Below, piece by piece: positions 29,294 to 61,947 of a stretch of 64,000 nucleotides of DNA. The notes beneath the pieces are model-generated. The model had not been told where the DNA came from. It was given only the letters and a program-made list of their open reading frames with translations, and searched no databases. The stretch lies in assembly GCA_046760785.1 (NCBI GenBank), contig JBHIET010000003.1, forward strand, positions 451-64,450, given 5' to 3'. A program made the position numbers and the translations under genes. Origin of the DNA: Anaerolineae bacterium. Lineage in GTDB: Bacteria > Chloroflexota > Anaerolineae > B4-G1. Numbering within the stretch: the first letter of the stretch is position 1; every line of letters begins with the position of its first letter.

Positions 29294-30211
29294 ATGAGAC
29301 ACCTGAGCCGCGAGCAGCGCCGCGGCGTCATGAACACAATCATTGCCAGTTTCCTTCTGGGCTGGGCACCCATTCTGGGCAAAATAGCCTATACGAGCGG
29401 TGCCACGCCATACACCCTGGTTGCCCTCCGCACGCTGGTGGCAGCGCTGCTCCTGTGGTTGGTTTTTGCGTTCTTCTGGCGTCGCGAGATCGCTATCTCC
29501 TGGCGTGACCTGATCGGATGTGTCGCTGTGGGCGCAGTGAACGGCTTCGGATCGCTACTCTACTACATGAGTCTCTTACGCCTCGATGCTTCTCGTGCCT
29601 CGCTGCTCAACACCCTCTACCCACTATGGGTGGTACTGTTCCTCTTCGCTGCCGGACAGCCACTGACGCGCCTCACCTTGGCGCGCCTGACGCTCTCTAC
29701 ACTGGGAATTTATCTACTGACGCGCACGCGGCCAGGGGAACTGGATTGGTTGGGAGTAATGCTGATGATTGCCTCAGCGGCGACCTATGGCTGGCACCTG
29801 GTGTTAGGACAGTGGGTGCTGGCCGATGTGCCGGCGCACAAGGCAGCGCTCTACATTCTGACGACCATGGCCTGCGTGGTCGGTGTGGCACGGGCGCTGC
29901 AGGCGCGGCCAGTGGAACCTATCGTGAGCACCGGATGGGGCGCGATCCTGGCGCTGGGGCTGACGACCGCCCTATCGCGGCTGGCGATGTTCAGCGCACT
30001 GGAACGGCTGGGAGGAGTCGAGACGGCGTTAGCTGGCCTGTTGGAACTGCTGGTCAGCCTGGTGCTGGCTTTCTTATTGCTAGGCGAACGCCTGACACTT
30101 GTACAGTGGCTTGGAGGCGGGCTGCTGGTGGTCAGCCTGATGATGATGACTCGCGATCCTGGGATGCGCCTGGCAGAGGGAAACGTGCCTCTGGAGTGGA
30201 AGCAGCAGTGA
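29294..30211 (+). CDS. DMT superfamily transporter (EamA family)
   Basis: 305 aa from the ATG at 29294 with about 10 TM segments in a two-fold EamA-like arrangement. The 3' end overlaps the convergent kinase gene by 80 bp. Confidence 0.8.
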   Translation: MRHLSREQRRGVMNTIIASFLLGWAPILGKIAYTSGATPYTLVALRTLVAALLLWLVFAFFWRREIAISWRDLIGCVAVGAVNGFGSLLYYMSLLRLDASRASLLNTLYPLWVVLFLFAAGQPLTRLTLARLTLSTLGIYLLTRTRPGELDWLGVMLMIASAATYGWHLVLGQWVLADVPAHKAALYILTTMACVVGVARALQARPVEPIVSTGWGAILALGLTTALSRLAMFSALERLGGVETALAGLLELLVSLVLAFLLLGERLTLVQWLGGGLLVVSLMMMTRDPGMRLAEGNVPLEWKQQ

Positions 30212-39200: not shown

Positions 39201-42200
39201 ATCCAGCAGGCGGGAGACGCCCCGGTAAACCTGGTCCACCACCTCATCCACACTGAGGTAGGTTGTGAGGGCCTGGCCCAGTTCGTTCAGCACGGCCAGT
39301 TCCTCGGCGCGGGTGCGGGCCTCCTCGAACAAGCGAGCGTTCTCCAGGGCCATAGCGACCTGATCGCTGACCGCTTCGACGAGGGCGATCTCTTCAGGGA
39401 ACCACTCTCGGGCGTTGTCGGTCTGCTGGATACCCAGAGACCCGATGACCTGGTCGTGCACCTTGAGCGGTATCGCCAGCACTGCCTCCGTCGCCCCTGG
39501 CTCGACGAGTGCGACGGTCTCGCCGCGCTCCAGAGCCATGTCGAGCGCTGGAGCCGGCGGCTCCTCGGCCGGCAAGACGTCAACGCGGTCGTAGACATAG
39601 CTCAGCGGGCGCTCTGCCGACACCAGCTCAGCCCAGGCGGCGGCGCTGTACTCGCCGTAGAGGCGACTCAGTTCGCGAACTTGGGCCTCCGTGCGCTCCA
39701 CCAGACGGGCGTTCTCTATAGCGACGGCCAGTTGATCGGCCATGGTCTGCAAGGTGATCACGTCCTCGTCAGAGAAGGCAGCCGGTTCGGTGGACTGGAC
39801 GTCCAGCGCGCCGATGACGCGGCCGCGGATCACCAGCGGGAGGGCCATTTCGGAGCGGGTGTCCGGCAGGTCGGGATTGTCGAAAAAGACGGCGTCCTCG
39901 CCCACGTCGAGGGCAACGCGGGGTTCACCTGCCGCCGCGACGTAGCCGACGATGCCGACCTCACCAACCTTCAGTTTATGGCCCCGCTCCAGCATGCGCC
40001 GTCCGCCCTCGGAGAAGGCAGCGCGCAGGACGGCGTACTCGCCCCGCTCGTCCACCAGGAAGATGCCAGCGTGGTAGAAGCCGAATCTATCGGAGACGAG
40101 GCGCACCGTTTCATCGAGGAGTTGTTGTACGTCGAGGATAGCGGTGGCCTCGCGAGCCACCTCGGCTGCCGCCTGGAGCTGCGTAGTCCGGCGCTCCAGA
40201 CCAGCCGCGCGTCGTTCTAACTCCTCGTGCGCTCTTTGCAGTGCCTCCTCCGCCCGTTTGAGATCAGTGATGTCGGTATGAATCCCGACGATTCTCGCCG
40301 CTCTCCCCTCCTCATCTCTTTCGACGCACTTGCCTCTGGAAAGAATGTGACGCCACGTGCCATCCTTTGCCTTTAGGCGTATTTCAACCGCATAATCGTC
40401 GTGGCCCGGTTGGTTAAGCGCGTTATAGTTCTTCTCAAAGTTATTGAAGTCATCGGGATGCACCAGGCCGTTGAAGAAATCGAACGCATCGGCGGGGGCC
40501 AGCGGTTCATAGCCCAGCATGGTGAACATGCTATCGCTGAAGAAATCCCTTTTGTGATCGAGGCTATTTTCCCACAAGCCGTCCCTGGCAGCTTCAATAG
40601 CGAGTCGAAAACGCTCCTCGCTCTCCCGCAGCGCCTCCTCCGCCCGCTTGCGCTCGGCCAGTTCTTGCTGAATCGTCTCGTACAACCGCGCGTTCTCGAT
40701 GGCTGTGGCTGCCTGATTAGCGAAGGCTATCAGGAGGTCCAAATCGGCCTGGTCGAAGTCCACTCGCTTGTCCATGACCACCAGAGTGCCCATGACCTGG
40801 TCCTTGATGGTCAAGGGGGCTATGGCAGCGTTTTGGTTTTGCTCTCTCCCTGAACGCCAACGCGGGTCCACGCGGTCGTCGTCTCGAAGTTGGTTGGATA
40901 TGACGGGCTGGTTATGGAGGGTTACCCAGCCGGAGAGGCTGCCTTCCAGGGGGGAACGAAAACCAAGCGTGTGGCCCTGGGAGCCGCTAGCGGCGATCAC
41001 CTCCTCCTCCCTGTTCTCCCAATCCACCAGGTTGATGATACCCCCACCGCCTTGCAGTAGGGTGGCGGCTTGCTGGGTGATGAGGTTGAGGAGTTTGTCG
41101 AGTTCCAGGGTGCTGGCCACGGCCCTGGTGGTCTCTTGTAGGGCAGTGAGTTGGGCCAGTCGGCTCCTGGTATCTTCGAACAGGCGCGCGTTCTCCGTAG
41201 CCCGGGCAACCTGATCGGCGATCGTCTCCAACGTAGTGACGTCAGCTTCAGTGAAGACGTTGGGGCGGTCGCTGTCCACCGCCAAGACTCCTATCGTCTT
41301 GTCACCCAGCCTGATGGGGACGTCTAGTTCAGCGGCGATGTCCAAGAACTCCAAGGGCAGAAATCGAGGTTCCTTCGTAACGTCATTGGCCAGTAGTGTC
41401 TCCCCGGTCTGCGCTACCCAACCCACCATCCCTTCCCCTATCTTCTGAGTGTACCCCGAGGGTATCAATTCCGTTTGGAAGCCGGCAATGGCTTCCAAGG
41501 CGGCCTCCTGGTCCCGTACTGAGAAGATGGCCACATACTGATAGCCAACCTTCTCCTGAACGGCTTCGACTACTGTTTGGTAAAGCTCGGTCAAGTCCAA
41601 GATAGGGGTGATTCGCTGTCCCACCTCGTTGATTAGAGCGAGTCGCTCCGACCGGTGCCTGATCTCCTCCTCCACCGTCTTGCGCTCGGTGATGTCGCGA
41701 TAAATGCCATAAAGCGCCACCTGCTCGCCATCAACTTCAACTGGCATCCCAAGAATTGACACACTGACCAACGTTCCATCCTTGCGCCGACGCACGGTCT
41801 CAAAGGTAGTTCTCTCACCCCTGGCCACCTGCTTCGTGATCGAGGCAGCTTCCTCGCGTAGATCGTCCGGCGCGAGCAGCTCGTCTATGGACTGACCAAG
41901 CACTTCATCAAGCGTGTACCCGAACGTCCCGGCGAATTCGTTATTCGCACGTAATATTCGAGCATCAGTGTCAACCAGTACCATCGCCTCCGGGGCGCCC
42001 TCAAATAGCTGCTCAAGGTAGGCCTTCTCGACTCGCAGTGCATCCTGCACCCGCTTGCGCTCGGTGATTTCTCTCTGAGCCCGGTCGTAGAGCCAAGCAG
42101 TTTCGATGGCAGTGGCTGCTGGTGCCGCCAGCGAGGTCAGTAGCCGCAAGTCCTCCTCGTCAAAGGCACCGCTCTCCTTGTTCATCACCTCGATAGCGCC

Positions 42201-43064
42201 GATCGTTTGCCCTTTAGTTTGCAAGGGAACGCACAGAACCGAGCGGGTGGTCAAGCCACTCTCTCTATCAAAGTCACCAAAGAAGCGGGTGTCCTTCGAC
42301 ACGTCTGGCACAATCACCGCTTCGCTGTGCTGGACAACCCAACCTGCAATCCCCTGCCCCGGCGCCAACCGCGCACCCCGTACAAAATCCGAACCCTCGC
42401 CGGAGGTCGCAGCGAACCACAGATCACCCCTGTCCTGGTCAAGAAGGGCCACCGAGGCTGCCGCCACGCCCAGCAACCGGATCGTGTGTTCGGTGATGAC
42501 GGTCAGCGTCTCCTGCAAGTCCAGAGCGGAGATGAGGGCCTGGCCAACCCTGTTCAGAGCGGCCAGTTCACGGTTGAGTTTAATACTTACGGCCTCCGTC
42601 TCCTTGCGCTCGGTGATGTCAATGAAGCTTTCGAGCAGATGCTCGCGACCGTCCAGCATAACAGAAGCCACCGTCTTGAGGATCGGCACACTCCTACCAT
42701 CGGCATTCAGTAACACACGCTCTGAGTTGTCTACGGTCTGTCCAAGATCGGTAATAGGGCAGCGTCCCTTCTCCGCCGGGCAAATGTAGTGATGACACAC
42801 AGAACCAATAACCTGTTCTGGGGGAGCACCGATCATCTCGATAGCGGCGGGGTTGACATCAACGATTTCGTGGGTCTGCGCATCAATCACCACAATGCCA
42901 CTCGGTGTGGAGTCCAACAGGGTCCTCAGACGCTCCTCGCTCTCCCGCAACGTCTCCTCTACCCGCTTGGGCTGCTTTTCTGGCCCCTGCAATTTGGCCA
43001 CTTGTTGGCGCAGCTTCTGCAGTTCCTCGATCAGTTGCGCTTTGGTCTTTCTTTGATCGTTCAT
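33225..43064 (-). CDS. giant hybrid sensor histidine kinase (3279 aa): coiled coil, 3 PAS-like, ~14 GAF-like modules, HisKA, HATPase, 2 REC
   Basis: Single uninterrupted ORF. 14 modules end in …(E/Q)NARL(F/Y/V)… or a variant. H-box FLANMSHELRTPLNSIIGF. HATPase (…NAEKFT…, DSGIGI, GTGLGLSI). REC1 LDVMMPGKDG and REC2 LDLIMPEVDG. ATG at 43064 preferred over TTG at 43076. Confidence 0.9.
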   Translation of the reverse strand: MNDQRKTKAQLIEELQKLRQQVAKLQGPEKQPKRVEETLRESEERLRTLLDSTPSGIVVIDAQTHEIVDVNPAAIEMIGAPPEQVIGSVCHHYICPAEKGRCPITDLGQTVDNSERVLLNADGRSVPILKTVASVMLDGREHLLESFIDITERKETEAVSIKLNRELAALNRVGQALISALDLQETLTVITEHTIRLLGVAAASVALLDQDRGDLWFAATSGEGSDFVRGARLAPGQGIAGWVVQHSEAVIVPDVSKDTRFFGDFDRESGLTTRSVLCVPLQTKGQTIGAIEVMNKESGAFDEEDLRLLTSLAAPAATAIETAWLYDRAQREITERKRVQDALRVEKAYLEQLFEGAPEAMVLVDTDARILRANNEFAGTFGYTLDEVLGQSIDELLAPDDLREEAASITKQVARGERTTFETVRRRKDGTLVSVSILGMPVEVDGEQVALYGIYRDITERKTVEEEIRHRSERLALINEVGQRITPILDLTELYQTVVEAVQEKVGYQYVAIFSVRDQEAALEAIAGFQTELIPSGYTQKIGEGMVGWVAQTGETLLANDVTKEPRFLPLEFLDIAAELDVPIRLGDKTIGVLAVDSDRPNVFTEADVTTLETIADQVARATENARLFEDTRSRLAQLTALQETTRAVASTLELDKLLNLITQQAATLLQGGGGIINLVDWENREEEVIAASGSQGHTLGFRSPLEGSLSGWVTLHNQPVISNQLRDDDRVDPRWRSGREQNQNAAIAPLTIKDQVMGTLVVMDKRVDFDQADLDLLIAFANQAATAIENARLYETIQQELAERKRAEEALRESEERFRLAIEAARDGLWENSLDHKRDFFSDSMFTMLGYEPLAPADAFDFFNGLVHPDDFNNFEKNYNALNQPGHDDYAVEIRLKAKDGTWRHILSRGKCVERDEEGRAARIVGIHTDITDLKRAEEALQRAHEELERRAAGLERRTTQLQAAAEVAREATAILDVQQLLDETVRLVSDRFGFYHAGIFLVDERGEYAVLRAAFSEGGRRMLERGHKLKVGEVGIVGYVAAAGEPRVALDVGEDAVFFDNPDLPDTRSEMALPLVIRGRVIGALDVQSTEPAAFSDEDVITLQTMADQLAVAIENARLVERTEAQVRELSRLYGEYSAAAWAELVSAERPLSYVYDRVDVLPAEEPPAPALDMALERGETVALVEPGATEAVLAIPLKVHDQVIGSLGIQQTDNAREWFPEEIALVEAVSDQVAMALENARLFEEARTRAEELAVLNELGQALTTYLSVDEVVDQVYRGVSRLLDTTNFYVALYDPESNAVSFPLSMEGGQRVRWESRQAGEGLTEYLIHSRQPLLMEESLPERMEELGIEMIGRTALSWLGVPLMIGGRVLGVMAVQSYTTPGLYDEHDRDLLTAIASQAAIALQNARLFEETRIRAEEMAVLNELGQALTAHLNVDQVLEETYRGASRLLRTPNFYVALYDPEKEEINFAFDVSESEEDQQYTTIPADQGLAGYIIQKRASVLIQEGLPERLEEMGVELVGELALSWLGVPLIVGERVLGAMAVQDYTTPHAFDEHDQDLLTAIASQAAIALQNARLFEETRRRARQVEAINEVGRAMTSVLDPDVILHQIVNDVKDRFGYYFVNIAMIEGDRIVLRDASTIGDSDIRPERGTVSLDLYGAGLVAEAARAGEPVLVNDVRDDPRYAFMPELPDTLAELCVPIKVRDRVIGVLDLESARPNDFDQTDLALFQSLASQAGAALENARLFEEARTRAEELAVLNELGQALTARLNVEQVLDEAYRQASRLVDTANFYIGLYDPEKDEITFPFSVSESEIDDQITVMSASQGLTGYIIRNRTSVLLGEDASEWEAEMGIETVGQEAPSWLGVPLMVGDRALGVMAVQSYTTPGLYDEHDRDLLTAIASQVAIALQNARLFEETRVRAEELAVLNELGQALTARLNVEQVLDEAYRGASRLVDTANFYIALYDPDRDEVTFALDTLEGELRRPYTTRRAGQGLTEYIIRNRQPLLMEESLPERMEELGIEMIGRTALSWLGVPLMIGGRVLGVMAVQSYTTPGLYDEHDRDLLMAIASQAAIALQNARLFEDIENRLAQLTALQETTRAVAGTLELDELLNLITQQASTLLQSDGGILNLVDWENEEDEVVAAYGSQAQALGSRNPLEGALSGWVTLHNQPVISNQLRDDSRASQPFRTGELGGQNAAIAPLTIKDQVMGTLVAMDKQGGFDQADLNLLMAFANQAAIAIQNARLFEETQARAEELAVLNELGRALTARLNVEQVLDEAYRQASRLVDTTNFFIALYDPERHELTFDFQITESEIDKETLTVMSADEGVSGYIVRNRTSVLTQENVAEQLEEMGVEMVGEPALSWLGVPLMVGDQVLGVMAVQSYTTPGLYDEHDRDLLTAIASQAAIALQNARLFEETQRRATQLATAAEVARDATAILDVDQLLDEAVHRISERFGFYHAGVFLLDERDRYAVLQAASSEGGRRMLERGHRLRVGEVGIVGYVAGTGEPRIALDVGQDAVFFNNPDLPDTRSEMALPLKVRERVIGVLDVQSTEEGAFSEEDVAVLQTMADQLATAIANARLFQDARADAMRRALINEMLQTAAASLDPEELLHRAGEVISHRLEVPSAVFTWEPEEKVLHLVAVHAADATDVPLPEGLEQVTREMNPVLFEAVMGRRTRILETTADLSGPLADVARRAQAQSAIYVPLVSRNQVLGVLDLSTLKGQPLVEAAFAELVAANLSVALENARLFQDAVHTAERLAEVDRLKSQFLANMSHELRTPLNSIIGFSRVILKEIDGPLTDMQRTDLQAVYDSGQHLLRLINDILDISKIEAGKMELSFEAVDLKEAIEGVMATAIALVKDKPIELQQSIPEDLPKVRGDERRIRQVLLNLVSNAEKFTEAGFIRVEAEASSTEVTISVADSGIGIAPEKLDSIFDPFIQVDASTTRRAGGTGLGLSITREFVEMHGGRIWVESGLGKGSTFYFTLPIKGPPLPSEEVEVEQPEPEPGQKVVLCVEDDEGVITLFRRYLSKQGYQVIGLTDSTVAVERARKLRPFAITLDVMMPGKDGWQVIQELKSDPETRHIPVILCTILSEKERGLSLGASDYLIKPILEEDLVAALDHLDREAGRHLVLVVDDQPEDRNLLRRMIEACEGYEVMEAAGGQEAITLIRQTQPHIIILDLIMPEVDGFAVLEAVKADETTRSIPIVVVTAKDLSQEERDFLTSRVEALLQKGLFEQGELLVDVAAALKRFSREGSAQDDETG
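36817..37035. repeat. intragenic repeat copy 1 (219 bp; last 190 bp identical to copy 2)
   Basis: 36846-37035 matches 38874-39063 base for base by direct comparison. The preceding 29 bp differ at 3 positions. Confidence 0.9.
38845..39063. repeat. intragenic repeat copy 2
   Basis: See copy 1. Encodes the same …ESLPERMEELGIEMIGRTALSWLGVPLMIGGRVLGVMAVQSYTTPGLYDEHDRDLL… segment. Confidence 0.9.
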
Positions 43065-43122
43065 CTCGACCCCCAAGAATCCAAGATTGGGAGATTTAGG
43101 ATTGGTGGATTTATCTCGTGTA

Positions 43123-43171
43123 CCATTTGACGTCTGTCATTTGATATTTGACATTTGTCACTTGTCATTTG
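43123..43171. repeat. 7 degenerate heptamers (NNaTTTG) spanning the stop codon of the 43158 gene and the intergenic spacer
   Basis: ccatttg acgtctg tcatttg atatttg acatttg tcacttg tcatttg. The adjacent 43080-43111 region shows GATT at 7-8 nt spacing. Confidence 0.8.
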
Positions 43172-45413
43172 ATCGTGTACCTGTGCCCAGCCGTATAAAT
43201 GCCCGGTCGGTACCGAGAGCCGCACCCAGTTCCCGCACAGCGGTCTGCAGAATGCTCTCCAAATCCATAGAAGCACGCACTCGCGTGGTGATGTCGCCGA
43301 TGAGCCGCTCCTGCTCCGCTCGCTGTCGGGTCTCCTCCAGCAAGCGAGCGTTCTCTAACGCCAGCCCAACCTGAATGCTCACTTGCTCCACCAGCGCGAT
43401 CTCGTCGGGGGACCAGGGCTCCGCCTCGGGGTCCTGCCGCAAGACGATGGAACCAAGGGTCTGCCCGCGCAAGCGGATGGGGGCGATCAGTTGGCGGCCG
43501 TCCTCCTCCTGTATAACGACCGGCCGGCGATGAAGCGGCAGAGCCTCCATCTCCACTGTGAGGGAGGGAGGAGCGGAGTCCACTCCCACGCCGGTGTAGT
43601 GGTAGGCGGCTGGTTGGCGGGTCGCCCGCTCCCGCCAGGCCTCGCGTGCCTGCCGTCCATAGAGGGTTTCCAGTTCCCGCAGCGCCCGCTGGCTTTCCTC
43701 CAGCAGGCGGGCGTTCTCGATGGCCAGCGCCAACTGATCCGCCATCGTCTCTAGGATCGCTACGTCCTCGTCGGAGAAGGCTCGTTGTTCTGCGGACTGC
43801 ACGTCCAGCACTCCGATCACCCGCTCCCGTACTTTCAGCGGCAACCCCATCTCCGAGCGGGTGTCGGGCAGGTCGGGGTTATCGAAGAACACGGCGTCGG
43901 CACCCACGTCCAGCGCGATGCGGGGCTCTCCCATCCCCGCCGCGTATCCCACGATCCCCACCGCGCCCACCTTCAACTTGTGGCCCCGCGCCAGCATCCG
44001 CTGCCCGCCTTCCGACGAGGCGGCCCGCAGCACCGCGTACTCTCTCGCCTCGTCCAGCAGGAAAATGCCAGTGTGGTAGAAGCCGAAGCGATCGGAGATG
44101 AGGCGGGCAGTGGCGTTCAAGAGTTGCCCGACGTCACGGATGGCGGCAGCTTCGCGGGCGACCTGGGCCGCGGCCTCCATGTGGACGGAACGCCGCTCCA
44201 AGTCCGCCGTGCGCTCGGCCACCCGCTGCTCCAGGCTGCCGATCAGCCCGCGCAACTGGGCCGTCATGCTGTTGAAGGCCTGCGCCAACGCCCCGATCTC
44301 GTCCCTGCGCTCTACTTTGGCGACACGTTCCAGGTCACCGGCCGTGATCTGCGCGGCCGTTTCCGCCAGCTCGCCCAGCGGGGTGGCGATGCTGCGGGTG
44401 ACGAACAACGAAGCAACCACAGCAACTAGCACGGCGACCACCGCCACGCCTCCGATGGCACCCAGCATCACATACACTCCGCCAAAGGCCTCCGCCTGGT
44501 CTTGCTCGGCCAGCAGCGCCACCTGGAATTCCGGCAGCCAGTGATAGACCCCGATCACACGCTCGCCACGATAGTCCTCGTACATCCCGGAACCGTCGCT
44601 GTGGTCCTCTATCGCCGCATCGGCCCCCTGGGTGCGTACATAGGTCCCTTCCTCACCGAAGCGCGACTCGGTCAGCAGGGTATGGCTCAGGTCAACCAGG
44701 TAGGTCTTACCTGTCTCGCCCAACCCCGTTCGTTCTCCCATAATCTCGTTCAACCTGGCCGTGTTGGCACAACCAGCCAGGACGCCCAACACCTGCCCCT
44801 CTTCGTCAACCACCGGGTGGACGGCGAACACCGCCGTCCGGCCCAGTGACGAAGAGTAGAACGGCGGCTGCACGGAGGACTCTTTTAACCCTTCCTGGAA
44901 ATAGGTCTGGTCGCTGTGAATCGTGTCCTCCTGTGTGGCATCGCTGGACACGACCGCCTGTCCCTGGAGATCTAGCAAGAGCAGTTCTTCAAACAACCCC
45001 GTCTCGCTAATATGTAACTGGAAACGCCTCTGCAATTCATCACGCATGCCCCGGTAAAGCGTGATATCAGACGCTCGCAACACAGTACGCAAAAACAATG
45101 TCGTACCCTCTTCAGCTAACACATCGTTCAGATCGGTTTGCAAGCTGGATATCCAGGCCTTGCTCTCAGTCTCTTTGAACATGGCCACCAACTCAATCTG
45201 ACTGATCAATCGCTGCCGCACACTTTGCAGGCCCAAGATGCCTGCGGCGACGCCGGTGGCAAGCGCCGGTATCAGGACCATCGTCACGAAAGCGATGAGC
45301 AAGCGGGCGCGGATAGTACTGAGGGAAAGGGCGTGCAGGAATTGCCAGACGCTTCGCCCGCCGCGCCCGACCGAATCTGGCTCGCTAAGTGAATGGGAGT
45401 TGAGACTGGTCAT
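43158..45413 (-). CDS. kinase-less sensor paralogue 1: TM, dCache-like periplasmic domain, TM, HAMP, GAF, linker, partial GAF, C-terminal truncated GAF-like module
   Basis: 751 aa. HAMP …RSIATPLGELAETAAQITAGDLER…FNSMTAQL…. GAF of the DRFGFYHTGIFL…LPDTRSEMGLPL type. No H-box or HATPase. Confidence 0.85.
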   Translation of the reverse strand: MTSLNSHSLSEPDSVGRGGRSVWQFLHALSLSTIRARLLIAFVTMVLIPALATGVAAGILGLQSVRQRLISQIELVAMFKETESKAWISSLQTDLNDVLAEEGTTLFLRTVLRASDITLYRGMRDELQRRFQLHISETGLFEELLLLDLQGQAVVSSDATQEDTIHSDQTYFQEGLKESSVQPPFYSSSLGRTAVFAVHPVVDEEGQVLGVLAGCANTARLNEIMGERTGLGETGKTYLVDLSHTLLTESRFGEEGTYVRTQGADAAIEDHSDGSGMYEDYRGERVIGVYHWLPEFQVALLAEQDQAEAFGGVYVMLGAIGGVAVVAVLVAVVASLFVTRSIATPLGELAETAAQITAGDLERVAKVERRDEIGALAQAFNSMTAQLRGLIGSLEQRVAERTADLERRSVHMEAAAQVAREAAAIRDVGQLLNATARLISDRFGFYHTGIFLLDEAREYAVLRAASSEGGQRMLARGHKLKVGAVGIVGYAAGMGEPRIALDVGADAVFFDNPDLPDTRSEMGLPLKVRERVIGVLDVQSAEQRAFSDEDVAILETMADQLALAIENARLLEESQRALRELETLYGRQAREAWRERATRQPAAYHYTGVGVDSAPPSLTVEMEALPLHRRPVVIQEEDGRQLIAPIRLRGQTLGSIVLRQDPEAEPWSPDEIALVEQVSIQVGLALENARLLEETRQRAEQERLIGDITTRVRASMDLESILQTAVRELGAALGTDRAFIRLGTGTRSNDK

Positions 45414-45461: not shown

Positions 45462-47204
45462 TTATTGAGAAGATACGTCCACAAGCTCCTCGTCGGCCTG
45501 AAGAGGACTGGCCCCATCGCCGACCCCCAACCGGATCAGCCCGTCCGAGGCCCCCAGTGCCCGCGCCAGTTCTCGAACTGCCGTGCGCAGGATAGTGTCT
45601 ACGTCGGTGGAGGCACGCACCCGGGCGGTGATCCCGGCCAGGAGCTGCTCCCGCCTCGCGCGCTGCCGGGTCGCTTCCAGCAGACGGGCATTCTCTATGG
45701 CCAGCGCCATCTGGTCGGCTATGGCTTCGATGAGGGCGATCTCGTCGTCCGTCCACCGCCGCCCGCCCTCCATCTCCTGCAGTCCCAGCGCGCCGATGAC
45801 CTGGCCGCGCAGGCTGATGGGCGCCACGAGAGCAGCCTCCCCCGTTCCGTCACCGGTGCCCGGCTGTGCGACGATCTCCTGCTGCGCCACTGCCCGCTCA
45901 ACCTCGGGCAGCGTGGCCTCGCCAAGAGGGGGCACGTCTGGCCGGGTACGTTCGTAGAGGGGAGCAACGCGACCAGGTGTGAGCCCGGATCGCTGTTCGC
46001 GCATGAGACTTCGTTGGCGTTCCTCCATCTTTTCCAAACGTGCCTGGGTCTCGGCAAACACCTGCGCGTTTTCAATGGCCACCACTATCTGGTCGGCCAT
46101 CGCCTGCAATACGAGGATGTCCTCCTTGGAAAAAGCTTCTCGCTCAGTGCTGTGGATGTCCAGTGCACCGATCACCCGGTCACGAGACAATAGCGGCAGG
46201 ACCATCTCCGAGCGCGTTTCCGGCAGCAGTGGGTTGATTTGGATGATCTCTATCTCGTCGTCACAACGCACTGTCTCCTCACCAGGCTCAGCCGAGGCCT
46301 GTGCAGTACTAAACCGAGCCTGTGCCGAAGCGAGGTCCAGCGCAATGCGGGCATGACCACTGGCTATGCAATGACCGACTACCGAGTCGCTGTTCGCCCC
46401 GAACCCATGGCCCTGCGCCAGCATCTGATGGCCCGCCTCACCTGTGCCTGCCCGCAGCACTGCCCCCTGCCCAGATTCATCCATCAAGAAAAGGCCAACA
46501 TAATAGAGATCAAACCGGTCACGGATCTGATTCACCACCTCCTGCACCAGTTCATCCGGGTCAAGCACCGAGATGATGGCACAGGAGACCCGGGCAGCGG
46601 CCTGGAATTGGAGGGTGCGCCTCTGCAACAGAGCGCTGGCTGCGGCCAGTTCCTCCACTCGCTCCTCAAGAAGCATCTGAGAACGAGTCGCCTCAGCGCG
46701 TTTCTCTTCTACCTCTCGCACAGCGCTGGTCAAGGAGGAGTTGAACAGCCACTGTATCAGCGTGACAACAACAGCCACCGTATAGGCAGTGCAGTATAGA
46801 GTATGGAATCCCGACCACACCATCGGTTTCTGCCAGATGAAACGGATCAGCAGGAAGACAAGGGGCGCTCCTCCTAGGACGATCACTCCGTACAGCAGGA
46901 TATTAAGGATTCTGATACGCTGTCTCCCCAGTTTGAGCTCCCAGGAGGTGGTGCTTGTCGAGGGAATCCCTTGCTCTTTCCTGGTTACTTCCGACTCTAG
47001 CGGAACTGATGGAGGAGCTTCCACTACCGGTGGCTCGGCTACGACACGCTCACCTACGTCTCTGCCTTCGAGGAGGCCGGCGACGACTGTTTCCTCCAGC
47101 GGAGATTCCTCCCACTTCTCCCCTGCCTCTGGCCCCGGCTCCTGCTCAGGGATGGCGGCGGAAAACAGCCCCTTGAGATGGTCTCTGAGGTCTTTACTTA
47201 CCAT
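45462..47204 (-). CDS. kinase-less paralogue 2: basic N-terminal peptide, acidic low-complexity region, 2 TM, coiled coil, GAF, partial GAF, C-terminal truncated GAF-like module
   Basis: 580 aa. The start overlaps the ParA-like stop by 11 nt. GAF …DRFDLYYVGLFLMDE…LPETRSEMVLPL…. Ends …ITARVRASTDVDTILRTAVRELARALGASDGLIRLG…. Confidence 0.8.
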   Translation of the reverse strand: MVSKDLRDHLKGLFSAAIPEQEPGPEAGEKWEESPLEETVVAGLLEGRDVGERVVAEPPVVEAPPSVPLESEVTRKEQGIPSTSTTSWELKLGRQRIRILNILLYGVIVLGGAPLVFLLIRFIWQKPMVWSGFHTLYCTAYTVAVVVTLIQWLFNSSLTSAVREVEEKRAEATRSQMLLEERVEELAAASALLQRRTLQFQAAARVSCAIISVLDPDELVQEVVNQIRDRFDLYYVGLFLMDESGQGAVLRAGTGEAGHQMLAQGHGFGANSDSVVGHCIASGHARIALDLASAQARFSTAQASAEPGEETVRCDDEIEIIQINPLLPETRSEMVLPLLSRDRVIGALDIHSTEREAFSKEDILVLQAMADQIVVAIENAQVFAETQARLEKMEERQRSLMREQRSGLTPGRVAPLYERTRPDVPPLGEATLPEVERAVAQQEIVAQPGTGDGTGEAALVAPISLRGQVIGALGLQEMEGGRRWTDDEIALIEAIADQMALAIENARLLEATRQRARREQLLAGITARVRASTDVDTILRTAVRELARALGASDGLIRLGVGDGASPLQADEELVDVSSQ

Positions 47205-47958
47205 GATTCATCAACTCCTTGGCCAGGGCGCGGTACTGTTGAGCCCCACGGGTCTTCGGCGCATAAAGTGTGATCGGTTGACCAAACACCGGGCTTTCCC
47301 TCAACCTGGTATCCACCTCGATAACAGTACTGAAGAGTACCTCGCTCAGTCCCCGCTGCATCTGGCCAAGTATGACCCGGCAGATCTTGTTGCGCCGGTC
47401 ATACATCGTCACCAGCACGCGGTACTTCAGCCGTGGGTTGGTCTTCTCTCGCACGCGCTGAACCAGTTTCACAAAGTGAAGGAGCGTGTGAGCGGCATAA
47501 TACTCACATTGGATGGGAATGACGAGCAAATCAGCCGCCGTCAGGGCATTGAGGGTCAGTGTCCCCAGGGAGGGCGGACAGTCAATCAGGACAAAGTCGT
47601 AGAAACCCTCGTCCATAATATCCAGCCCGTTCTTCAATCTGAATTGATAGCCCGGTCGCCCATAGAGGATTCTGTCGAGGACGACGAGCCCCTGATTGGC
47701 AGGCACGATGTCCAGGCCGTATACCGGACTCTCGCGGCTGACGCCAACCAGCGAGGCGTTTCCCAGAAGGGCATCTCCCACTGTGCGACGCAACTCCCTC
47801 GGTTTCAACCCCATCGAGAGAGTGAGATTGGCCTGGGGGTCAAGATCAACGAGCAGGACAATCTGCCCCATCTCGGACAGGCAGGCTCCCAACGACAGGC
47901 AGGTAGTGGTCTTGGCCACCCCTCCCTTTTGATTGCTGATGGCGATAGTTGTAGCCAT
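47194..47958 (-). CDS. orphan ParA/Soj-type deviant Walker A ATPase
   Basis: MATTIAISNQKGGVAKTTT (KGGxxK[ST] deviant Walker A). Walker A' LLVDLDPQ and Walker B VLIDCPPS. No ParB-like gene in the window. Confidence 0.9.
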   Translation of the reverse strand: MATTIAISNQKGGVAKTTTCLSLGACLSEMGQIVLLVDLDPQANLTLSMGLKPRELRRTVGDALLGNASLVGVSRESPVYGLDIVPANQGLVVLDRILYGRPGYQFRLKNGLDIMDEGFYDFVLIDCPPSLGTLTLNALTAADLLVIPIQCEYYAAHTLLHFVKLVQRVREKTNPRLKYRVLVTMYDRRNKICRVILGQMQRGLSEVLFSTVIEVDTRLRESPVFGQPITLYAPKTRGAQQYRALAKELMNHGK

Positions 47959-47978: not shown

Positions 47979-50810
47979 TTATGCTCCATCCTTCTCATCA
48001 TCCTGTGCCGACGGGGCAGCCTCCAGTCGCACAAAGGCGCGCGACGTCCCCAACACGCCGAAAAGCTCATCCACTGCTGCCTGTACGATGCCCTCTACGC
48101 CGCTGGCGCGGCGCATCTTATCCGTGATCTCGCGGGTCAACCGCTCGCGGACAGCGCGGCGCTGCGCATCCTCATAGAGCCGGGCGCTTTCCAGCGTCTC
48201 TCCCAACTGGTCGGCCAGTGTCTCTAACACAGCGACCTCCTCGGCTGTCCAGCCGCCTGCATCGCCAGTTTTGTAGGTATCCAATATGCCGATCACGTTG
48301 CCACGTACTTTAATGGGCACGGCCAAAGGATTTGGGGTTTGAGATTTGGAATCTGGAATTTGGACGGTCTTTCCTTCCTCCAAGGCCCGTTCCATCTCAG
48401 GTCGCCATATATCCCCAGCACTGGTGACGCCGCGCTCGTCGCTGCGGTAGGACAGATCAGACTGGGTGCGCAGCAATCCGGCCCAGGCTTCACGGCTCAA
48501 TTCGCTGTAGGCGCGGCGCGTCGCCTCCAGGGCCGCCTGAGTCTCGGTGAACAGCCGCGCATTGTCGAGGGCGACCGCCACCTGATCGGCCAAAGTCTGC
48601 AATACGGCGACGGCGGCCTCATCAAAGGCAGAGGGTTGGTCGCTCTGGACCGTCAGCGCACCAATGACGCGGCCGCGCGAGCGCAGGGGCAGGGCCACCT
48701 CGGAGCGGGTGTCCGGCAGCTCTGCAGTGGCCAGACGCACAGCATCTTCACCGACGTCCAGCGCGACACGCGCCTGCGCGTTGGCAATGCTCCAGCCAAT
48801 CATTCCCTCGCCAGCCTTGATGCGGTGACCACGGGCCAGCATCGCCCGACCAGCATCGCCGGTGCCAGCCCGCAGCACAGCCCACTCGCCGGCCTCGTCC
48901 ACCAGGAACAGCCCCACGTAGTACAGGCCAAACCGCTCGCGGATCAACTCGACCACCTGTCGGATCAACTGGTCCGCATCCAGAATGGACGACGCCGCAC
49001 GGCCCACTGCGGCTGAGGCTTCCAGGTAGGCCGAGCGTTGCTCCAGCTCGCGGGTACGCCGGGCCACGCGCTGCTCCAGGCTGCCGATGAGGCCGCGCAA
49101 CTGGGCGGTCATGCTGTTGAAGGCTCGCCCCAGCGTACCTACCTCGTCCTCTCGCTCCACTTTGGCGATGCGTTCCAGGTCACCGGCCGCGATCTGCGTG
49201 GCCGTTTCCGCCAGATCGCCCAGCGGGGTGGCGATGCTGCGGGTGATGAACAGTGAAGCGACCACGGCGAGTATCACGGAGACCAACGCCACGCCCACGT
49301 TGATGACCAGCGTCGCATACGTTGCGCCAAAGGCCTCCGCCTGGCTTTGTTCGGCCAGCAGCACGACCTGGAGTTCCGGCAGCCAGTGATAGACCCCGAT
49401 CACGGGTACACCCCGATAGTCGTCGTACAAGCCGGAACCGCTGATGCGATTTTCTATCGCCGCGTCGGCTCCCTGGGTACGCACATAGATTCCTTCCTCG
49501 CCGGAGCGCAACTCAGTCAACAAGGCACGGTCGCGGCCGATAATATAGGTCTCCCCCGTCTGGCCCAACCCGGCCCGTTCTCCCATGATCTCATTCAACT
49601 TCGCCAGGCCAGCACGACCGGCCAGGACACCCCACACACGCCCCTCTTCGTCAGCCACCGGGCGCACGACGACCACCGACATCCGGTCCAGCGAGGAGGA
49701 GTAGAACGGCGGCTGTACGTAGGGCCCTTTTACTCCTTCCTGGAAATAAGTCTGGTCACTGTAAATCTCGCCCTCCCGCTCGGCGTCGGTGGAGAGGACC
49801 ACTTGCCCCTGGAGATTCATCAGGAACAATTCCTCAAACCGCCCCGCCTGTTCAATCGCCTGTTGGAAATGGCTCCGCACCCGATATGCCAGATACTCGG
49901 ATGGCTCTGGTAATTGCAACAACATAATCGTGCGCGGCATCGCCTCCTCTCCGGTCAACGCAGTAACCAGATTGGTTTGCAGACTGCTCACCCACGTCTC
50001 AATCTCGGCCTCTTTAAGTGTAGCCACTGATTCGAGTTGATTAATCGCTTGCTGTCGCCCGCTCCGCCAGCCTAACACGGCCGAGCCAGCGCCGGTGACG
50101 GCCGCCGGCAGCAAGACCATCGTCACGAAAGCGATGAGCAAGCGGGTGCGGATGGTGCCCAGGCGGAAGGCTCGGGCAATCTGCCACAGGACCGCCAGCG
50201 CCGCCAGGCCCGTTATGCCCGGTATAATAGTGCCCAACAGGATAGACTGCGCAATATCGTAGCGGGGCAACGGCTCAAACTGATTGACCAGCCAGACGTA
50301 GATTCCGAACAAGCTGGCTATGACCAACCAAGAAACCCATTTGCGGGGCATGATCATACTGCCCGTCAGGATGATGAGCAAGATACCGCCCACTGTAAGA
50401 TACAAGGTCGCACCGCTCCAGATCAACTCGGCACCACCGTAGGCAACCACCAGGCCAAAAATCGCCCAGTATCCTGCAGCGTCGAGCTTCCCTTGCCGGG
50501 CCAGGTGATAACCCACAGCCGCGGACACAAGAGACAGCACAAGGAACCCAACTTCGGTCAGTATTTGCCAGGCCCCGGTTTGCACGTAGAACAGCACGTA
50601 GAGGACGATGCTGATAATAGCGCCAGCGACCAGAATCAACGCCAATCGCCTGAAACTCGTCATGCGACGTTGCTCGTCCGAGATTCCAGCCACGGGCTGT
50701 CTGTTCTGCGGCAGGTTTTGCGCAGCATCCGTGTGGGACGGGGCAGCGCCTTGAACTGCCTCCTCGGAGGCGCGGTGGGCCGACGCGACTACTTTTGTTT
50801 CCTCAGGCAT
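47979..50810 (-). CDS. kinase-less sensor paralogue 3: ~6 TM, dCache-like domain, TM, HAMP, GAF, partial GAF, C-terminal truncated GAF-like module
   Basis: 943 aa. The HAMP and Cache regions are closely similar to paralogue 1. No kinase domains. Confidence 0.85.
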   Translation of the reverse strand: MPEETKVVASAHRASEEAVQGAAPSHTDAAQNLPQNRQPVAGISDEQRRMTSFRRLALILVAGAIISIVLYVLFYVQTGAWQILTEVGFLVLSLVSAAVGYHLARQGKLDAAGYWAIFGLVVAYGGAELIWSGATLYLTVGGILLIILTGSMIMPRKWVSWLVIASLFGIYVWLVNQFEPLPRYDIAQSILLGTIIPGITGLAALAVLWQIARAFRLGTIRTRLLIAFVTMVLLPAAVTGAGSAVLGWRSGRQQAINQLESVATLKEAEIETWVSSLQTNLVTALTGEEAMPRTIMLLQLPEPSEYLAYRVRSHFQQAIEQAGRFEELFLMNLQGQVVLSTDAEREGEIYSDQTYFQEGVKGPYVQPPFYSSSLDRMSVVVVRPVADEEGRVWGVLAGRAGLAKLNEIMGERAGLGQTGETYIIGRDRALLTELRSGEEGIYVRTQGADAAIENRISGSGLYDDYRGVPVIGVYHWLPELQVVLLAEQSQAEAFGATYATLVINVGVALVSVILAVVASLFITRSIATPLGDLAETATQIAAGDLERIAKVEREDEVGTLGRAFNSMTAQLRGLIGSLEQRVARRTRELEQRSAYLEASAAVGRAASSILDADQLIRQVVELIRERFGLYYVGLFLVDEAGEWAVLRAGTGDAGRAMLARGHRIKAGEGMIGWSIANAQARVALDVGEDAVRLATAELPDTRSEVALPLRSRGRVIGALTVQSDQPSAFDEAAVAVLQTLADQVAVALDNARLFTETQAALEATRRAYSELSREAWAGLLRTQSDLSYRSDERGVTSAGDIWRPEMERALEEGKTVQIPDSKSQTPNPLAVPIKVRGNVIGILDTYKTGDAGGWTAEEVAVLETLADQLGETLESARLYEDAQRRAVRERLTREITDKMRRASGVEGIVQAAVDELFGVLGTSRAFVRLEAAPSAQDDEKDGA
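48328..48362. repeat. 5 degenerate heptamers inside the paralogue 3 coding sequence
   Basis: ggatttg gggtttg agatttg gaatctg gaatttg. Encodes …IPDSKSQTPNPL… in a loop that varies among the paralogues. Confidence 0.75.
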
Positions 50811-50858: not shown

Positions 50859-52601
50859 TCACTCAACGCCATCTCCGGCTTCATCCGTTGGCCGGGTCGC
50901 CAGCCGGATCACGACCTCCGGCAGCCCCAACGCCTGGCGCACCTGTTGCACAGCGGTCTTAAGTATGGTCTCCGTATCCAGCGTCTCGCGCATGCGGGCC
51001 GCAATATCGCCGATCAGCCGCTCGCGAGCGGCGCGGCGCTGGGTCTCATCAATCAGGCGCAAGTTCTCAATAGTCAGTCCAACCTGCTCGGCGACGGTTT
51101 CCGCCAGAGCGATATCCTGGGTCGTCCACGGTCGTTGGCGACGTGTTTCGTGCAGAGCCATCGTGCCTATGACCTGCCCCCGCAACTTCAGGGGCACCAC
51201 GAGCGCCGTCTGGGATGTAGGAGGCTCCGCATCAGAGCCTGGAAAGGGACTGTCTGTAGCAACTGCCCGTCCGTGCATCATCACCGCGCGCCGGGCCTCG
51301 CGCAAGAATTCTCCATCCCCCACCTCTGCTCCCGGCTGGGTGTAGTCAATCCGAGTCACCGGCCCGGCAGCCAAGAACTCCTTCCAGGCCTGGGCCAGGT
51401 AGCGTCGGTGGGCAGCCCGCACTTCCTTCAAAGCAGCTTCAGTCTGGCTGAAGAGTCGAGCATTGTCAACCGCTACTGCCACCTGATCGGCCACCGTCTG
51501 TAGGGCAGTGACGTCAGCTTCGCTGAAGGCCGCCTCCTGGGTACTCTGCACGCTCAATGCTCCCAGGACACGTCCACGTGAGCGCAGCGGCAGGGCGATC
51601 TCCGAGCGCGTGTGTGGCATAGGGAGGGCATCAAGCTGCACCGTGCCCTCTTCCATGCCCAGTGCAATGCGGGCCTGCCGATGGATAACGCACCAGCCGA
51701 TCGCGGTTGTCTCGTCTAGTTCCACTTTGTGGCCCATCCCCAGCAACAGTTGGCCGGCCTCCCCTGTGGCAGCTCTCAGCACGGCAAACCGCTGTGTCTC
51801 GTCAAGCAGGAACAGGCCCACGTAGTACACGGCCATAGGGCGGAATCCCTCTTGAATCCGGTTGGCCACCTCGACCAACAACGCATCTGGGTCCAAGATG
51901 GAGGAGGCTACTTGAGCGATCTCGGCCGTCGTCTGGAGCTGGGAAGCCTGCCGGTGCAACAGCTCGGTAGTTTCTTCCAGCTCCTGTGTCCGTGCCTGCA
52001 GTTGCTGATTGGCCGTGCTCGCCCTCGCCATTGCCTCCAACCAGCTCCGGTTGAACGACCACAGCATCAGTGTCAGAATGGTCACCATAAGCAGGAAGGA
52101 GCCTCCCTCACCGACCCACGTTTTCAACGCATTCAGGTCGTCGGCCACGAGAGGTACGAGCCATCCCTGGCTGAAGACGAGGGTGAAGAAGGCGTAGGTC
52201 AGGACACTGGCAATCCCGGCCCAGATGCCGGGGCGCGGGCCTAACAGGATGAAAGTCAGAGCCGGGAGCAACAACATCCAGACACGCCCACTGCCGGGCA
52301 GCCCACCCCGGCGGAAGATGAAAAAGCCCAGCAAGTAGGTGAGCGTGAGAGAGAGCGCCGCCCGAGGGCGATAGCCCAAGCCGCGCCAGGCCCAGATGAT
52401 CAGCACGATCAGCCAGCCGGCGAGGAAAGGCCACATCTCCATCCACAGTTCTGGCACGCTCAGGCCCGCCGGCAGCGACAGGTAGGTCAAGACTAACGCT
52501 GCGAGGCCGCCGGCCACCGCAGTCAGCAGCAGACCATTCAGCAGCGTGGCGCGGCTGCGTTGGATTTCGACGTCCCAATCAGATACGGGTTGTGTGTCCA
52601 T
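50859..52601 (-). CDS. kinase-less paralogue 4: ~8 TM, coiled coil, GAF, partial GAF, C-terminal truncated GAF-like module
   Basis: About 580 aa (ATG at 52601 or GTG at 52607). Ends …IAARMRETLDTETILKTAVQQVRQALGLPEVVIRLA…. Confidence 0.8.
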   Translation of the reverse strand: MDTQPVSDWDVEIQRSRATLLNGLLLTAVAGGLAALVLTYLSLPAGLSVPELWMEMWPFLAGWLIVLIIWAWRGLGYRPRAALSLTLTYLLGFFIFRRGGLPGSGRVWMLLLPALTFILLGPRPGIWAGIASVLTYAFFTLVFSQGWLVPLVADDLNALKTWVGEGGSFLLMVTILTLMLWSFNRSWLEAMARASTANQQLQARTQELEETTELLHRQASQLQTTAEIAQVASSILDPDALLVEVANRIQEGFRPMAVYYVGLFLLDETQRFAVLRAATGEAGQLLLGMGHKVELDETTAIGWCVIHRQARIALGMEEGTVQLDALPMPHTRSEIALPLRSRGRVLGALSVQSTQEAAFSEADVTALQTVADQVAVAVDNARLFSQTEAALKEVRAAHRRYLAQAWKEFLAAGPVTRIDYTQPGAEVGDGEFLREARRAVMMHGRAVATDSPFPGSDAEPPTSQTALVVPLKLRGQVIGTMALHETRRQRPWTTQDIALAETVAEQVGLTIENLRLIDETQRRAARERLIGDIAARMRETLDTETILKTAVQQVRQALGLPEVVIRLATRPTDEAGDGVE

Positions 52602-52643
52602 GAGCACTTCCTCGTGTTACTCCAAAGAAACCGAGTTTCTGAC

Positions 52644-58034: not shown

Positions 58035-58095
58035 CAGACAAGCCCTCCGCACGGAATCTGCACCAAAACAGCAGCCGAATTGCCATAGGTGCTCT

Positions 58096-58124
58096 CATTA
58101 TATCAGATTCCAATTTAGATTTCA
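58096..58124 (-). promoter_or_regulatory. near-consensus promoter TTGAAA-17-TATAAT heading the signalling cluster
   Basis: -35 at 58119-58124, -10 at 58096-58101, about 60 nt upstream of the first response regulator ATG. Sits in a visibly AT-richer spacer. Confidence 0.6.
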
Positions 58125-58215
58125 ATGTTACGCCAATACTAGTGCGTTACAGATTGGTTACAATTTCGCCCATCGAAAACGTTACGGCTCGCCCTGCCGA
58201 CAGAATGATCTGAGT

Positions 58216-61794: not shown

Positions 61795-61916
61795 ACTCGA
61801 TACTGGATGCTGGAAGGAAACTCCGGAACCAATTCAGGGGAGGGACTATCGTTCAGTCAAAGAGCCACTTAAGCCTAGATTTCGCACTCCGCTAGCAGCT
61901 AAATCAGGCCAGTCGT

Positions 61917-61947
61917 CCTGAGTGCCGCGAAGCGGCGTATCGAAGGG
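61917..61947 (+). repeat. copy e of the dispersed motif, with an expanded internal hairpin (CCTGAG-N17-TCGAAGGG)
   Basis: cctgag tgccgcgaagcggcgta tcgaaggg. The inner part forms gccgc-gaa-gcggc. Intergenic. Confidence 0.55.

Follow-up and report, generated by a model that had tools for sequence, protein, structure and literature searches.

We analysed a 64,000-nt stretch of the genome of an Anaerolineae bacterium (contig JBHIET010000003.1 of assembly GCA_046760785.1; "the window" below means this whole stretch) and found on its minus strand a gene for a ParA/Soj-type ATPase whose end overlaps the start of a gene for a membrane-anchored GAF-domain protein. The second protein opens with a short peptide, called the tag hereafter, which recurs directly behind related ParA genes on proteins of many different architectures. 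Judging from sequence comparison and structure prediction, an Anaerolineae-type group has probably rewired a chromosome-partition motor so that it binds, and perhaps positions, signalling proteins. On balance, we favour the view that the ATPase and the overlapping gene form a dedicated two-gene module in which nucleoid-bound ParA would tether, position or space, or partition a tagged signalling client, and we consider it likely, with good confidence, that the tag and ParA would interact physically. In the literature on ParA in connection with GAF, Chloroflexi/Anaerolineae or MASE11, we found no description of such a system. The elements of the pair on which the argument rests are as follows.

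47194..47958, minus strand: ParA/Soj-type deviant Walker A ATPase of the tag-linked clade, 254 aa (open reading frame and Pfam)
47905..47928, minus strand: its Walker A motif KGGVAKTT, residues 11-18, both lysines kept
47215..47220, minus strand: Shine-Dalgarno-like AAGGAG within the codons for AKEL at the ParA C-terminus, 10 nt before the next ATG
47194..47204, minus strand: 11-nt overlap of the ParA stop codon TAA (ending at 47194) with the next ATG (47204)
45462..47204, minus strand: putative tagged client or adaptor protein, 580 aa, following ParA (open reading frame, Pfam and AlphaFold2)
47154..47204, minus strand: N-terminal tag MVSKDLRDHLKGLFSAA, residues 1-17 (alignment and AlphaFold2)

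The gene pair and its coupled start

The initial annotation of the window had placed a Soj/ParA-like ATPase with the motif KGGVAKTT between sensor paralogues, had seen no ParB and had described the 11-nt overlap. The open reading frame, the Pfam matches to AAA_31 and CbiA and the same-strand GAF-GAF neighbours bear out the first of these observations, and the positions of the TAA and the ATG the last. As for ParB, none was found in the 64-kb window, either by tblastn with two ParB proteins (best E-value 0.5) or by Pfam scans of all large open reading frames, parS sites not having been searched for. The overlap between stop and start implies translational coupling, and the same arrangement was found in other genomes. 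A scan of a genome collection gave 56 loci, about 40 of them in Anaerolineae, Thermoflexia, Caldilineaceae or "Chloroflexota" bins and the rest ordinary Soj genes with 34-43% identity. The downstream start overlaps the ParA stop by 8-35 nt in all 37 Chloroflexota loci with a readable next gene (ParA 47-92% identical), and a Shine-Dalgarno-like sequence lies within the last ParA codons in 34 of these. According to Pfam, none of the 37 downstream proteins is a ParB. For the ordinary Soj genes of the same scan (L049 and L050), the next gene is ParB, with a classical MSKEKRLGRGLSALIP-type N-terminus.

Close relatives of this ParA are very numerous, with 75-92% identity, in Anaerolineae-type metagenome bins. 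The lineage is large and little studied, with hundreds of 90%-identity clusters in the database, and Longilinea arvoryzae is a cultured carrier of the module.

Conservation of the tag

Every downstream protein of the related loci opens with the same peptide, for which the consensus is xDKDLRxQLEGLFSD. Hardly any variation is seen at L(-4), L(0), L(+3) and F(+4), the core lies 9-11 residues from Met1 (38 loci), and among the best 120 database homologues of the window protein the tag is present in 98 of the 109 that are complete at the N-terminus. Around the core, many but not all tags have K at -6 and R at -3, acidic residues are conserved at +1 and +6, and at least one K or R precedes the core in 89 of the 98 tags, some subgroups starting with MSKKQL or MAKKRKDL. 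The roughly 70 residues that follow are unconserved and predicted to be disordered. A six-frame pattern scan of each 20-kb locus found a single tag, in every case on the gene that follows ParA, and no extra copies on other array genes.

We considered whether an RNA element or the overlap itself could lie behind this conservation, and rejected the idea: the motif runs on past the overlap, which spans only 2-11 codons, and many synonymous codons are found at the conserved Leu and Phe positions, so that selection acts on the peptide rather than on an RNA element or on the ParA frame.

One distant ParA subclade (47% identity) has the tag on the hybrid kinase itself (L061, 10755-13571; L062, 10752-15701; L043, 927-4286), and here the tag is basic, MSKKQLRNRLESLFAELE. 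This version is closer to the ParB N-terminus MSKEKRLGRGLSALIP than the other tags are, which hints that the tag was derived from ParB.

Modularity of the tag and conservation of the operon

Pfam distinguishes at least eight architectures among the tagged proteins: TM-hairpin-GAF-GAF (transmembrane, TM; the type of the window), dCache-HAMP-GAF-GAF, MASE11-GAF, multi-GAF proteins of about 1500 aa, PAS-GAF-PAS, PAS-GAF-PAS-LytR_cpsA_psr, FGE-sulfatase-domain proteins, PAS-PAS and, in the distant ParA subclade, GAF-HisKA-HATPase-REC hybrid kinases. In two loci (L014 and L032), the ParA-tag pair stands among unrelated genes and outside any GAF array, and thus the minimal conserved unit is the two-gene pair. 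The surroundings are nevertheless often shared, as both the window subclade and the distant subclade have the pair within the same kind of sensor operon, including a threonine-synthase-like receiver enzyme, and one locus, L063, matches the window operon almost gene for gene. Furthermore, two look-ups that started from untagged paralogues both landed in operons holding a ParA-tag pair. The initial annotation had raised the possibility that ParA might be absent from homologous clusters elsewhere, and it was present in all of those examined.

Several loci of the scan deserve mention in their own right. The tagged protein of L014 (3825-9349) is of the PAS-GAF-PAS-LytR_cpsA_psr type, and just upstream of the pair are found neighbours of a cytoskeleton or polarity type, which encode a bactofilin, a Roadblock/LC7 (MglB-like) protein and a VWA protein. 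In the Caldilineaceae-type loci L032 (10752-12002), L033 (10749-11852) and L041, an FGE-sulfatase-domain protein bears two tandem copies of the tag, with no GAF array nearby. Single bins may also contain two ParA-tag pairs, as in G79 (L006 and L012), co334_151 (L007 and L015) and H23_299 (L018 and L021). The client types then differ, a TM-GAF-GAF protein being accompanied by a PAS-GAF-PAS protein or a PAS-type protein of about 1150 aa. Such co-occurrence implies paralogous systems that must avoid cross-talk.

The ParB-binding surface

In Myxococcus xanthus, ParB residues L11, L15, L18 and I19 are determinants of ParA binding, and the central R13 contacts ParA residues Y81, E82, D110 and E117 and is required for ATPase stimulation (PMC12462528). 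The tag residues L(-4), L(0), L(+3) and F(+4) have the same spacing as these four ParB residues; in the window they are L6, L10, L13 and F14, in the register i, i+4, i+7, i+8. At the position equivalent to R13 (i+2), the tag has S, D, N or A, the central Arg or Lys of ParB being absent and the N-terminus not being a positively charged one of the ParB kind. To compare the other side of the interface, M. xanthus residues were mapped on an alignment of 38 tag-linked and 10 canonical ParA proteins. Every mapped residue letter agreed with the numbering of the published work, which validates the register of the alignment.

Y81, which receives R13: Tyr in 0 of 38 tag-linked ParAs, with G, D, E, S or A instead; Tyr in 8 of 10 canonical ParAs
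E117, which receives R13: I, V or L in 34 of 38 tag-linked and acidic in 0 of 38; acidic in 7 of 10 canonical
V116, of the hydrophobic cleft: Lys or Arg in 38 of 38 tag-linked; hydrophobic in 10 of 10 canonical
R238, for DNA binding: Lys or Arg in 38 of 38 tag-linked (R218 in the window); Arg or Lys in 9 of 10 canonical
Walker A lysines, for catalysis: kept in 38 of 38 tag-linked; kept in 10 of 10 canonical

The equivalent of D110 is variable, and that of E82 is the only Arg-receiving position that is still acidic in the tag-linked clade, in which further clade-specific basic residues are found near the pocket at positions 57, 58, 101 and 172. The substitution R238E abolishes DNA binding by M. 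xanthus ParA (PMC12462528), and R238 is said to equal R189 of Bacillus subtilis. The simplest reading of these differences is that the tag would dock at the site of the ParB peptide, with the charge half of the interface inverted on both sides and the DNA matrix unchanged. They are clade-wide differences only, and no clean pairwise co-variation of charge between tag and ParA pocket was found between subclades. The proposal of the initial annotation that the downstream protein serves as the adaptor of this ParA is thus well supported by comparative data, namely a tag that is conserved, coupled, modular and found once per locus, together with a ParA surface that is remodelled across the whole clade.

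Ancestry of the ATPase

The ParA of the window matches the Pfam families AAA_31 (2e-50), CbiA (5e-18) and, over its full length, CBP_BcsQ (1.2e-13). The signature lysines that define the ParA/MinD superfamily, K11 and K16, are conserved in all 38 tag-linked ParAs. Residue 15 of the Walker A region is Ala in 100% of the tag-linked clade and Gly in all canonical Soj proteins compared (KGGVAKTT vs. KGGVGKTT), and the clade is further marked by SRE at 74-76, TMYDRRNKI and IEvDT(K/R)LRESP. When solved structures were ranked against this protein, M. xanthus ParA (8RAY, 179.5 bits), Thermus thermophilus Soj (1WCV, 168) and Helicobacter pylori Soj (6IUB, 152) came first, and MinD (35-60 bits), McdA (6NON/6NOO, 51, N-terminal part only), P1 ParA (48) and FleN (38-42) were more remote. 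By this comparison, the ATPase is nearest to Soj among solved structures and is a putative descendant of chromosomal Soj/ParA. No NCBIfam equivalog model gave a score above its cut-off for this protein; ParA_partition (NF041546) gave 95.9 bits against a cut-off of 180, and the minD scores were far below theirs. Since the C-terminus, YRALAKELMNHGK, comes directly after the last conserved core helix, the sequence gives no sign of a MinD-type membrane helix at that end.

In a neighbour-joining tree of 47 sequences, whose ParB-linked Soj came from the fetched loci and which held no PpfA, ParC, McdA or PomZ references, the tag-linked ParAs are monophyletic and apart from the Soj genes followed by ParB. 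The initial annotation had considered that the protein might group with chromosomal Soj and have a cognate ParB. The first half of this holds insofar as Soj is nearest among solved structures, and the second does not, as the protein belongs to a clade of its own with a partner other than ParB.

The tagged protein of the window

The 580-aa protein, whose N-terminus reads MVSKDLRDHLKGLF, consists of the tag, an acidic disordered linker, a TM hairpin, a long coiled coil, a GAF domain, a partial GAF domain and a C-terminal helix. The initial annotation had described a short basic peptide followed by an acidic, Pro-rich and probably disordered stretch and two TM helices. The linker and the helices stand, but the peptide cannot be called basic in general, its net charge being +1 in the window and -2 to -4 in most relatives. 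AlphaFold2 predicts tag residues 4-13 to be helical and residues 16-85 to be disordered (predicted local distance difference test score, pLDDT, <50). Residues 15-105 include 17 D/E, 9 K/R and 10 P. Beyond the tag, three further parts of the protein can be located.

47064..47102, minus strand: second short amphipathic motif PLEETVVAGLLEG, residues 35-47, with a helix predicted at 37-45 (AlphaFold2 and alignment)
46743..46916, minus strand: two hydrophobic helices, about 97-125 and 136-154, forming a predicted membrane hairpin (residues ~97-154; sequence and AlphaFold2)
45465..46664, minus strand: coiled-coil/GAF/partial-GAF module (Pfam and sequence comparison)

The second motif recurs in many relatives of the window type as LEE.I..LL, 25-35 residues after the tag and in the same hydrophobic register. 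Because only about 8 residues separate the two TM helices, the tag and the GAF domains should share one side of the membrane, the cytoplasmic one.

The operon around the pair

The minus strand carries every large gene from about 30.1 to 58.1 kb, with short gaps or overlaps between them. In the order of transcription, the elements other than the pair itself, which lies between the fifth and the sixth of the coding lines below, are the following.

58097..58125, minus strand: promoter-like TTGAAA-17-TATAAT upstream of the operon, 11 of 12 matches with a TG extension, a consensus match only
57651-58052 and 57232-57642, minus strand: two single-domain response regulator genes at the head of the operon (receiver domain)
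54710..57199, minus strand: dCache-HAMP-GAF-HisKA-HATPase histidine kinase (Pfam)
52644..54713, minus strand: HAMP-GAF-GAF paralogue (Pfam)
50859..52607, minus strand: MASE11-GAF-GAF paralogue (Pfam)
47979..50810, minus strand: dCache-HAMP-GAF-GAF paralogue, 943 aa, directly upstream of ParA with a 20-nt gap (Pfam)
43158..45413, minus strand: dCache-HAMP-GAF-GAF paralogue, 751 aa, downstream of the tagged gene (Pfam)
33225..43076, minus strand: giant hybrid histidine kinase, 3283 aa, with 3 PAS, 13-14 GAF, HisKA, HATPase and 2 REC domains (Pfam)
31538..33259, minus strand: threonine-synthase-like pyridoxal-phosphate (PLP) enzyme fused to a C-terminal receiver domain (Pfam; NF006050)
30132..31475, minus strand: REC-HisKA-HATPase kinase, the last gene of the conserved set, also in L063 (Pfam)

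A module of about 400 aa, consisting of the coiled coil, the GAF domain and the partial GAF domain, is common to five paralogues (33-41% identity) and is also found inside the giant kinase, at residues 951-1300. These GAF-GAF paralogues (43158-45413, 45462-47204, 47979-50810, 50859-52607 and 52644-54713) and the corresponding part of the kinase share an odd C-terminal end, in which the last GAF helix (ENARLLEE) is followed by a GAF-like first helix and first strand, I..R(V/M)R.S.D.E.IL.TAV.EL...LG....IRL. In the AlphaFold2 model of the 580-aa protein, the second GAF is only partial (3 strands) and is followed by a C-terminal helix at 535-549. As far as can be read from sequence, this segment could represent a GAF domain that is circularly permuted or prone to swapping and lets paralogues pair with one another. 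Several internal repeats of the giant kinase are near-identical, for example repeated LGVPLMIGGRVLGVMAVQSYTTPGLYDEHDRDLL blocks, which suggests recent internal duplication.

The threonine-synthase-like enzyme scores 1.6e-79 with NF006050, under the cut-off of that model, and its gene also follows the hybrid kinase in L061 (13624-15294), L062 (15709-17394) and L063 (16894-18558). It may represent an unusual enzymatic output of the phosphorelay.

Comparison with known systems

PpfA partitions cytoplasmic chemoreceptor clusters, and McdA positions carboxysomes. Compared with these and with the ParABS system of chromosome partition, the pair described here shows a mixture of likeness and difference. 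Its ATPase resembles that of ParABS in its best full-length matches (150-180 bits), its size, its deviant Walker A motif and the basic residue equivalent to R238/R189, and the partner gene is likewise immediately downstream and overlapping and encodes an N-terminal amphipathic helix with an identical register. In contrast to ParB, however, the partner has no HTH or CTPase domain and is a variable signalling or envelope protein. Moreover, the central Arg/Lys of the motif is absent, Y81 and E117 are replaced, V116 is Lys or Arg, and the Walker A motif is KGGVAKTT.

PpfA with TlpT in Rhodobacter sphaeroides and ParC with ParP in Vibrio provide the closest parallel for the setting, namely a ParA-type ATPase in a signalling operon with a signalling complex as the proposed cargo, and several of the sensors have inputs of the chemoreceptor type (dCache, HAMP, 4HB_MCP). 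In systems of the PpfA/ParC type, the partner acts through its N-terminal region, and the matrix for PpfA is the nucleoid (PMC11407121). Unlike these systems, the pair has no che-type partner, with outputs that consist of GAF-GAF proteins and hybrid histidine kinases, and its tag is a defined short motif on many architectures. Pfam scans of the large open reading frames of the window gave no match to the MCP signalling domain, CheA or CheW, nor to carboxysome families. With McdA and McdB, the pair shares a dedicated ParA, an N-terminal peptide of the partner for cargo specificity and the nucleoid as presumed matrix, but McdA is distant (51 bits vs. 180 for ParA), and the cargo here would be signalling proteins rather than a microcompartment. 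Pulianmackal et al. (2023; PMC10241942) reported that partners of the McdB type have positively charged, disordered N-termini, whereas the tag is a net-acidic amphipathic helix. An N-terminal "luggage tag" has been described as a general rule for partners of ParA/MinD ATPases (PMC10241942; PMC11407121). MinD/MinE, FlhG (FleN), MipZ and BcsQ, finally, have in common with the pair the ParA/MinD fold and the logic of an ATPase controlled by its partner, with Pfam matches that are partial or weak. Similarity to MinD and FleN is much lower, the gene context differs, and a MinD-type membrane helix is not evident.

Proposed mechanism and alternative explanations

The mechanism that we favour may be outlined as follows. 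The ATPase keeps the catalytic lysines of the ATP sandwich dimer and the basic residue for non-specific DNA binding, and the tag helix would dock on it at the site of the ParB peptide through the matching hydrophobic register. The electrostatic half of this contact would have been redesigned, with the Tyr and Glu receivers of Arg lost, Lys or Arg gained in the pocket and Glu or Asp of the tag in place of the central Arg. Nucleoid-bound ParA would then tether the tagged signalling protein and spread it along the nucleoid. In the window, the client would be the membrane-anchored GAF-GAF protein, presumably travelling with the GAF-GAF paralogues and the giant hybrid kinase, and the result could be that a low-copy signalling complex is placed or partitioned among the cells of a filament, by analogy with what PpfA and McdA do for their cargo. 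We infer each of these steps (tag binding at the ParB site, DNA binding, ATPase stimulation, co-assembly of paralogues and positioning) from sequence comparison. The same applies to the proposal of the initial annotation that ParA positions an array of GAF paralogues, which we likewise only infer. The shared module of about 400 aa makes co-assembly of the paralogues plausible rather than established.

Several observations weigh against this mechanism. Co-assembly of the paralogues is purely conjectural. The client in the window is anchored in the membrane, and a nucleoid-based gradient acting on a membrane protein would be unusual. The pairs of L014 and L032 lie outside any GAF array, and the tree described above is limited by the references that it contains. 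In addition, the pocket equivalents of L152 and L192 are mostly Thr in the tag-linked clade, making the cleft less hydrophobic than that of canonical ParA, and a net-acidic tag with no central Arg/Lys might bind ParA without stimulating it, or bind elsewhere.

These points leave room for other explanations, of which the one that we would consider before the rest, even if we think it unlikely, turns the relation between the two proteins around: ParA would be a signalling output, with the tagged sensor regulating its ATPase and DNA-binding cycle in response to GAF, PAS or Cache signals, and would act on a process linked to the nucleoid, for instance the choice of the division site, the control of replication (as Soj does with DnaA) or chromosome organisation. 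A precedent is offered by Soj, MipZ and PomZ, ParA-type proteins that regulate replication or division. It would also suit this explanation that nearly all tagged proteins are signal-transduction proteins rather than bulky structures, that the DNA-binding residue of ParA is kept, that the hybrid kinase itself is tagged in the distant subclade and that the pair of L014 is near bactofilin and Roadblock/LC7 genes. Nevertheless, no downstream target is conserved beside the pair, and clients with LytR_cpsA_psr and FGE-sulfatase domains are not classical sensors. Furthermore, the constant N-terminal tag is parted from the sensor domains by a long disordered linker, which suits a tether better than an allosteric switch.

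We find it still less probable that ParA is a factor for assembly or membrane placement similar to BcsQ, FlhG or VirC1, one that would help to insert its mostly membrane-bound clients or to place them at a fixed site, for example the septum or pole, without a nucleoid matrix. The CBP_BcsQ match along the full length of ParA (1.2e-13) fits such a role, as do the several clients that are membrane proteins (TM hairpin, dCache-HAMP, MASE11 and LytR_cpsA_psr types), but the similarity to Soj/ParA (168-180 bits) far exceeds that to MinD (60) and FleN (41), there is no evident MinD-type C-terminal membrane helix, the basic residue for DNA binding is present in 38 of 38 proteins, and the PAS-GAF-PAS and PAS-PAS clients, judged by their N-terminal sequences, lack a membrane segment. 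Most improbable of all, in our estimate, is that the gene is an ordinary chromosomal Soj which lies in a sensor operon by chance and whose ParB is encoded elsewhere, the N-terminal conservation being a by-product of the overlap or of an RNA element. The closest solved structures are indeed chromosomal ParA/Soj proteins, and the search for ParB covered the 64 kb of the window, so a ParB gene could be located elsewhere. However, the site that receives the Arg of ParB has been destroyed throughout the clade, the clade stands apart from ParB-linked Soj in the tree, several metagenome-assembled genomes have two copies, the protein stays below the cut-off of every NCBIfam equivalog, the tag accompanies ParA on unrelated proteins, and its motif reaches past the 2-11-codon overlap with free synonymous variation.

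Returning to a dedicated module of ParA and tagged client, a bolder version can be proposed tentatively, as something possible that we would not yet expect to hold in full. Filamentous Chloroflexota (Anaerolineae and relatives) would possess a portable luggage tag, consisting of a ParB-derived, charge-inverted helix and a co-evolved Soj-derived ATPase, that has been fused to many signalling or envelope proteins and that, in the window, would position or partition a chemoreceptor-like super-complex. With the same reserve, this super-complex might comprise the GAF-GAF sensors (with dCache, HAMP and MASE11 inputs), the 14-GAF hybrid kinase and the threonine-synthase-like receiver enzyme.

Other genes of the window

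Outside the sensor operon, a cluster of replication genes at 59801-63878 on the minus strand is apparently unrelated to the ParA-tag pair. It encodes a 448-aa protein with two IstB/DnaC-like AAA+ modules, a DnaD/DnaB_2-domain protein and a DnaB helicase, the open reading frame of which reaches the end of the region. At 13026-17300 (minus strand), YfhO-like and polysaccharide-biosynthesis (flippase-like) regions are joined in one membrane protein of 1424 aa, the gene for which adjoins a GT2 glycosyltransferase gene and a MacB/HlyD/ABC export set. Finally, a receiver-domain protein with a weak PDE8A_N-like match (18229-19782, minus strand) adjoins a V4R/MetOD1-domain protein, and the two genes constitute a small uncharacterised signalling pair.

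Significance

ATPases of the ParA/MinD family are the main spatial organisers of bacterial cells. Their known cargos comprise chromosomes, plasmids, carboxysomes, flagella, chemotaxis arrays, the divisome and a few secretion machines (PMC11407121). If the mechanism proposed here is true, sensor proteins, hybrid histidine kinases and proteins with LytR_cpsA_psr (LCP) and FGE domains would form a new class of cargo. If its bolder version holds as well, two-component signalling complexes, not chemotaxis arrays alone, would be carried by ParA. The features that would set this system apart are a modular partner tag of inverted charge, a ParA remodelled to match it, and clients that belong to two-component or other signalling or to the envelope. 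It would also amount to a natural experiment in specificity, in which the hydrophobic register of the ParB helix has been retained and the electrostatic half swapped on both partners. Such a swap would be one way in which paralogous ParA systems could avoid cross-talk with ParABS. Minimal positioning tags are sought for synthetic biology (PMC10241942), and a short peptide functioning on at least eight protein architectures would be one of this kind. The module is widespread in Anaerolineae-type Chloroflexota.

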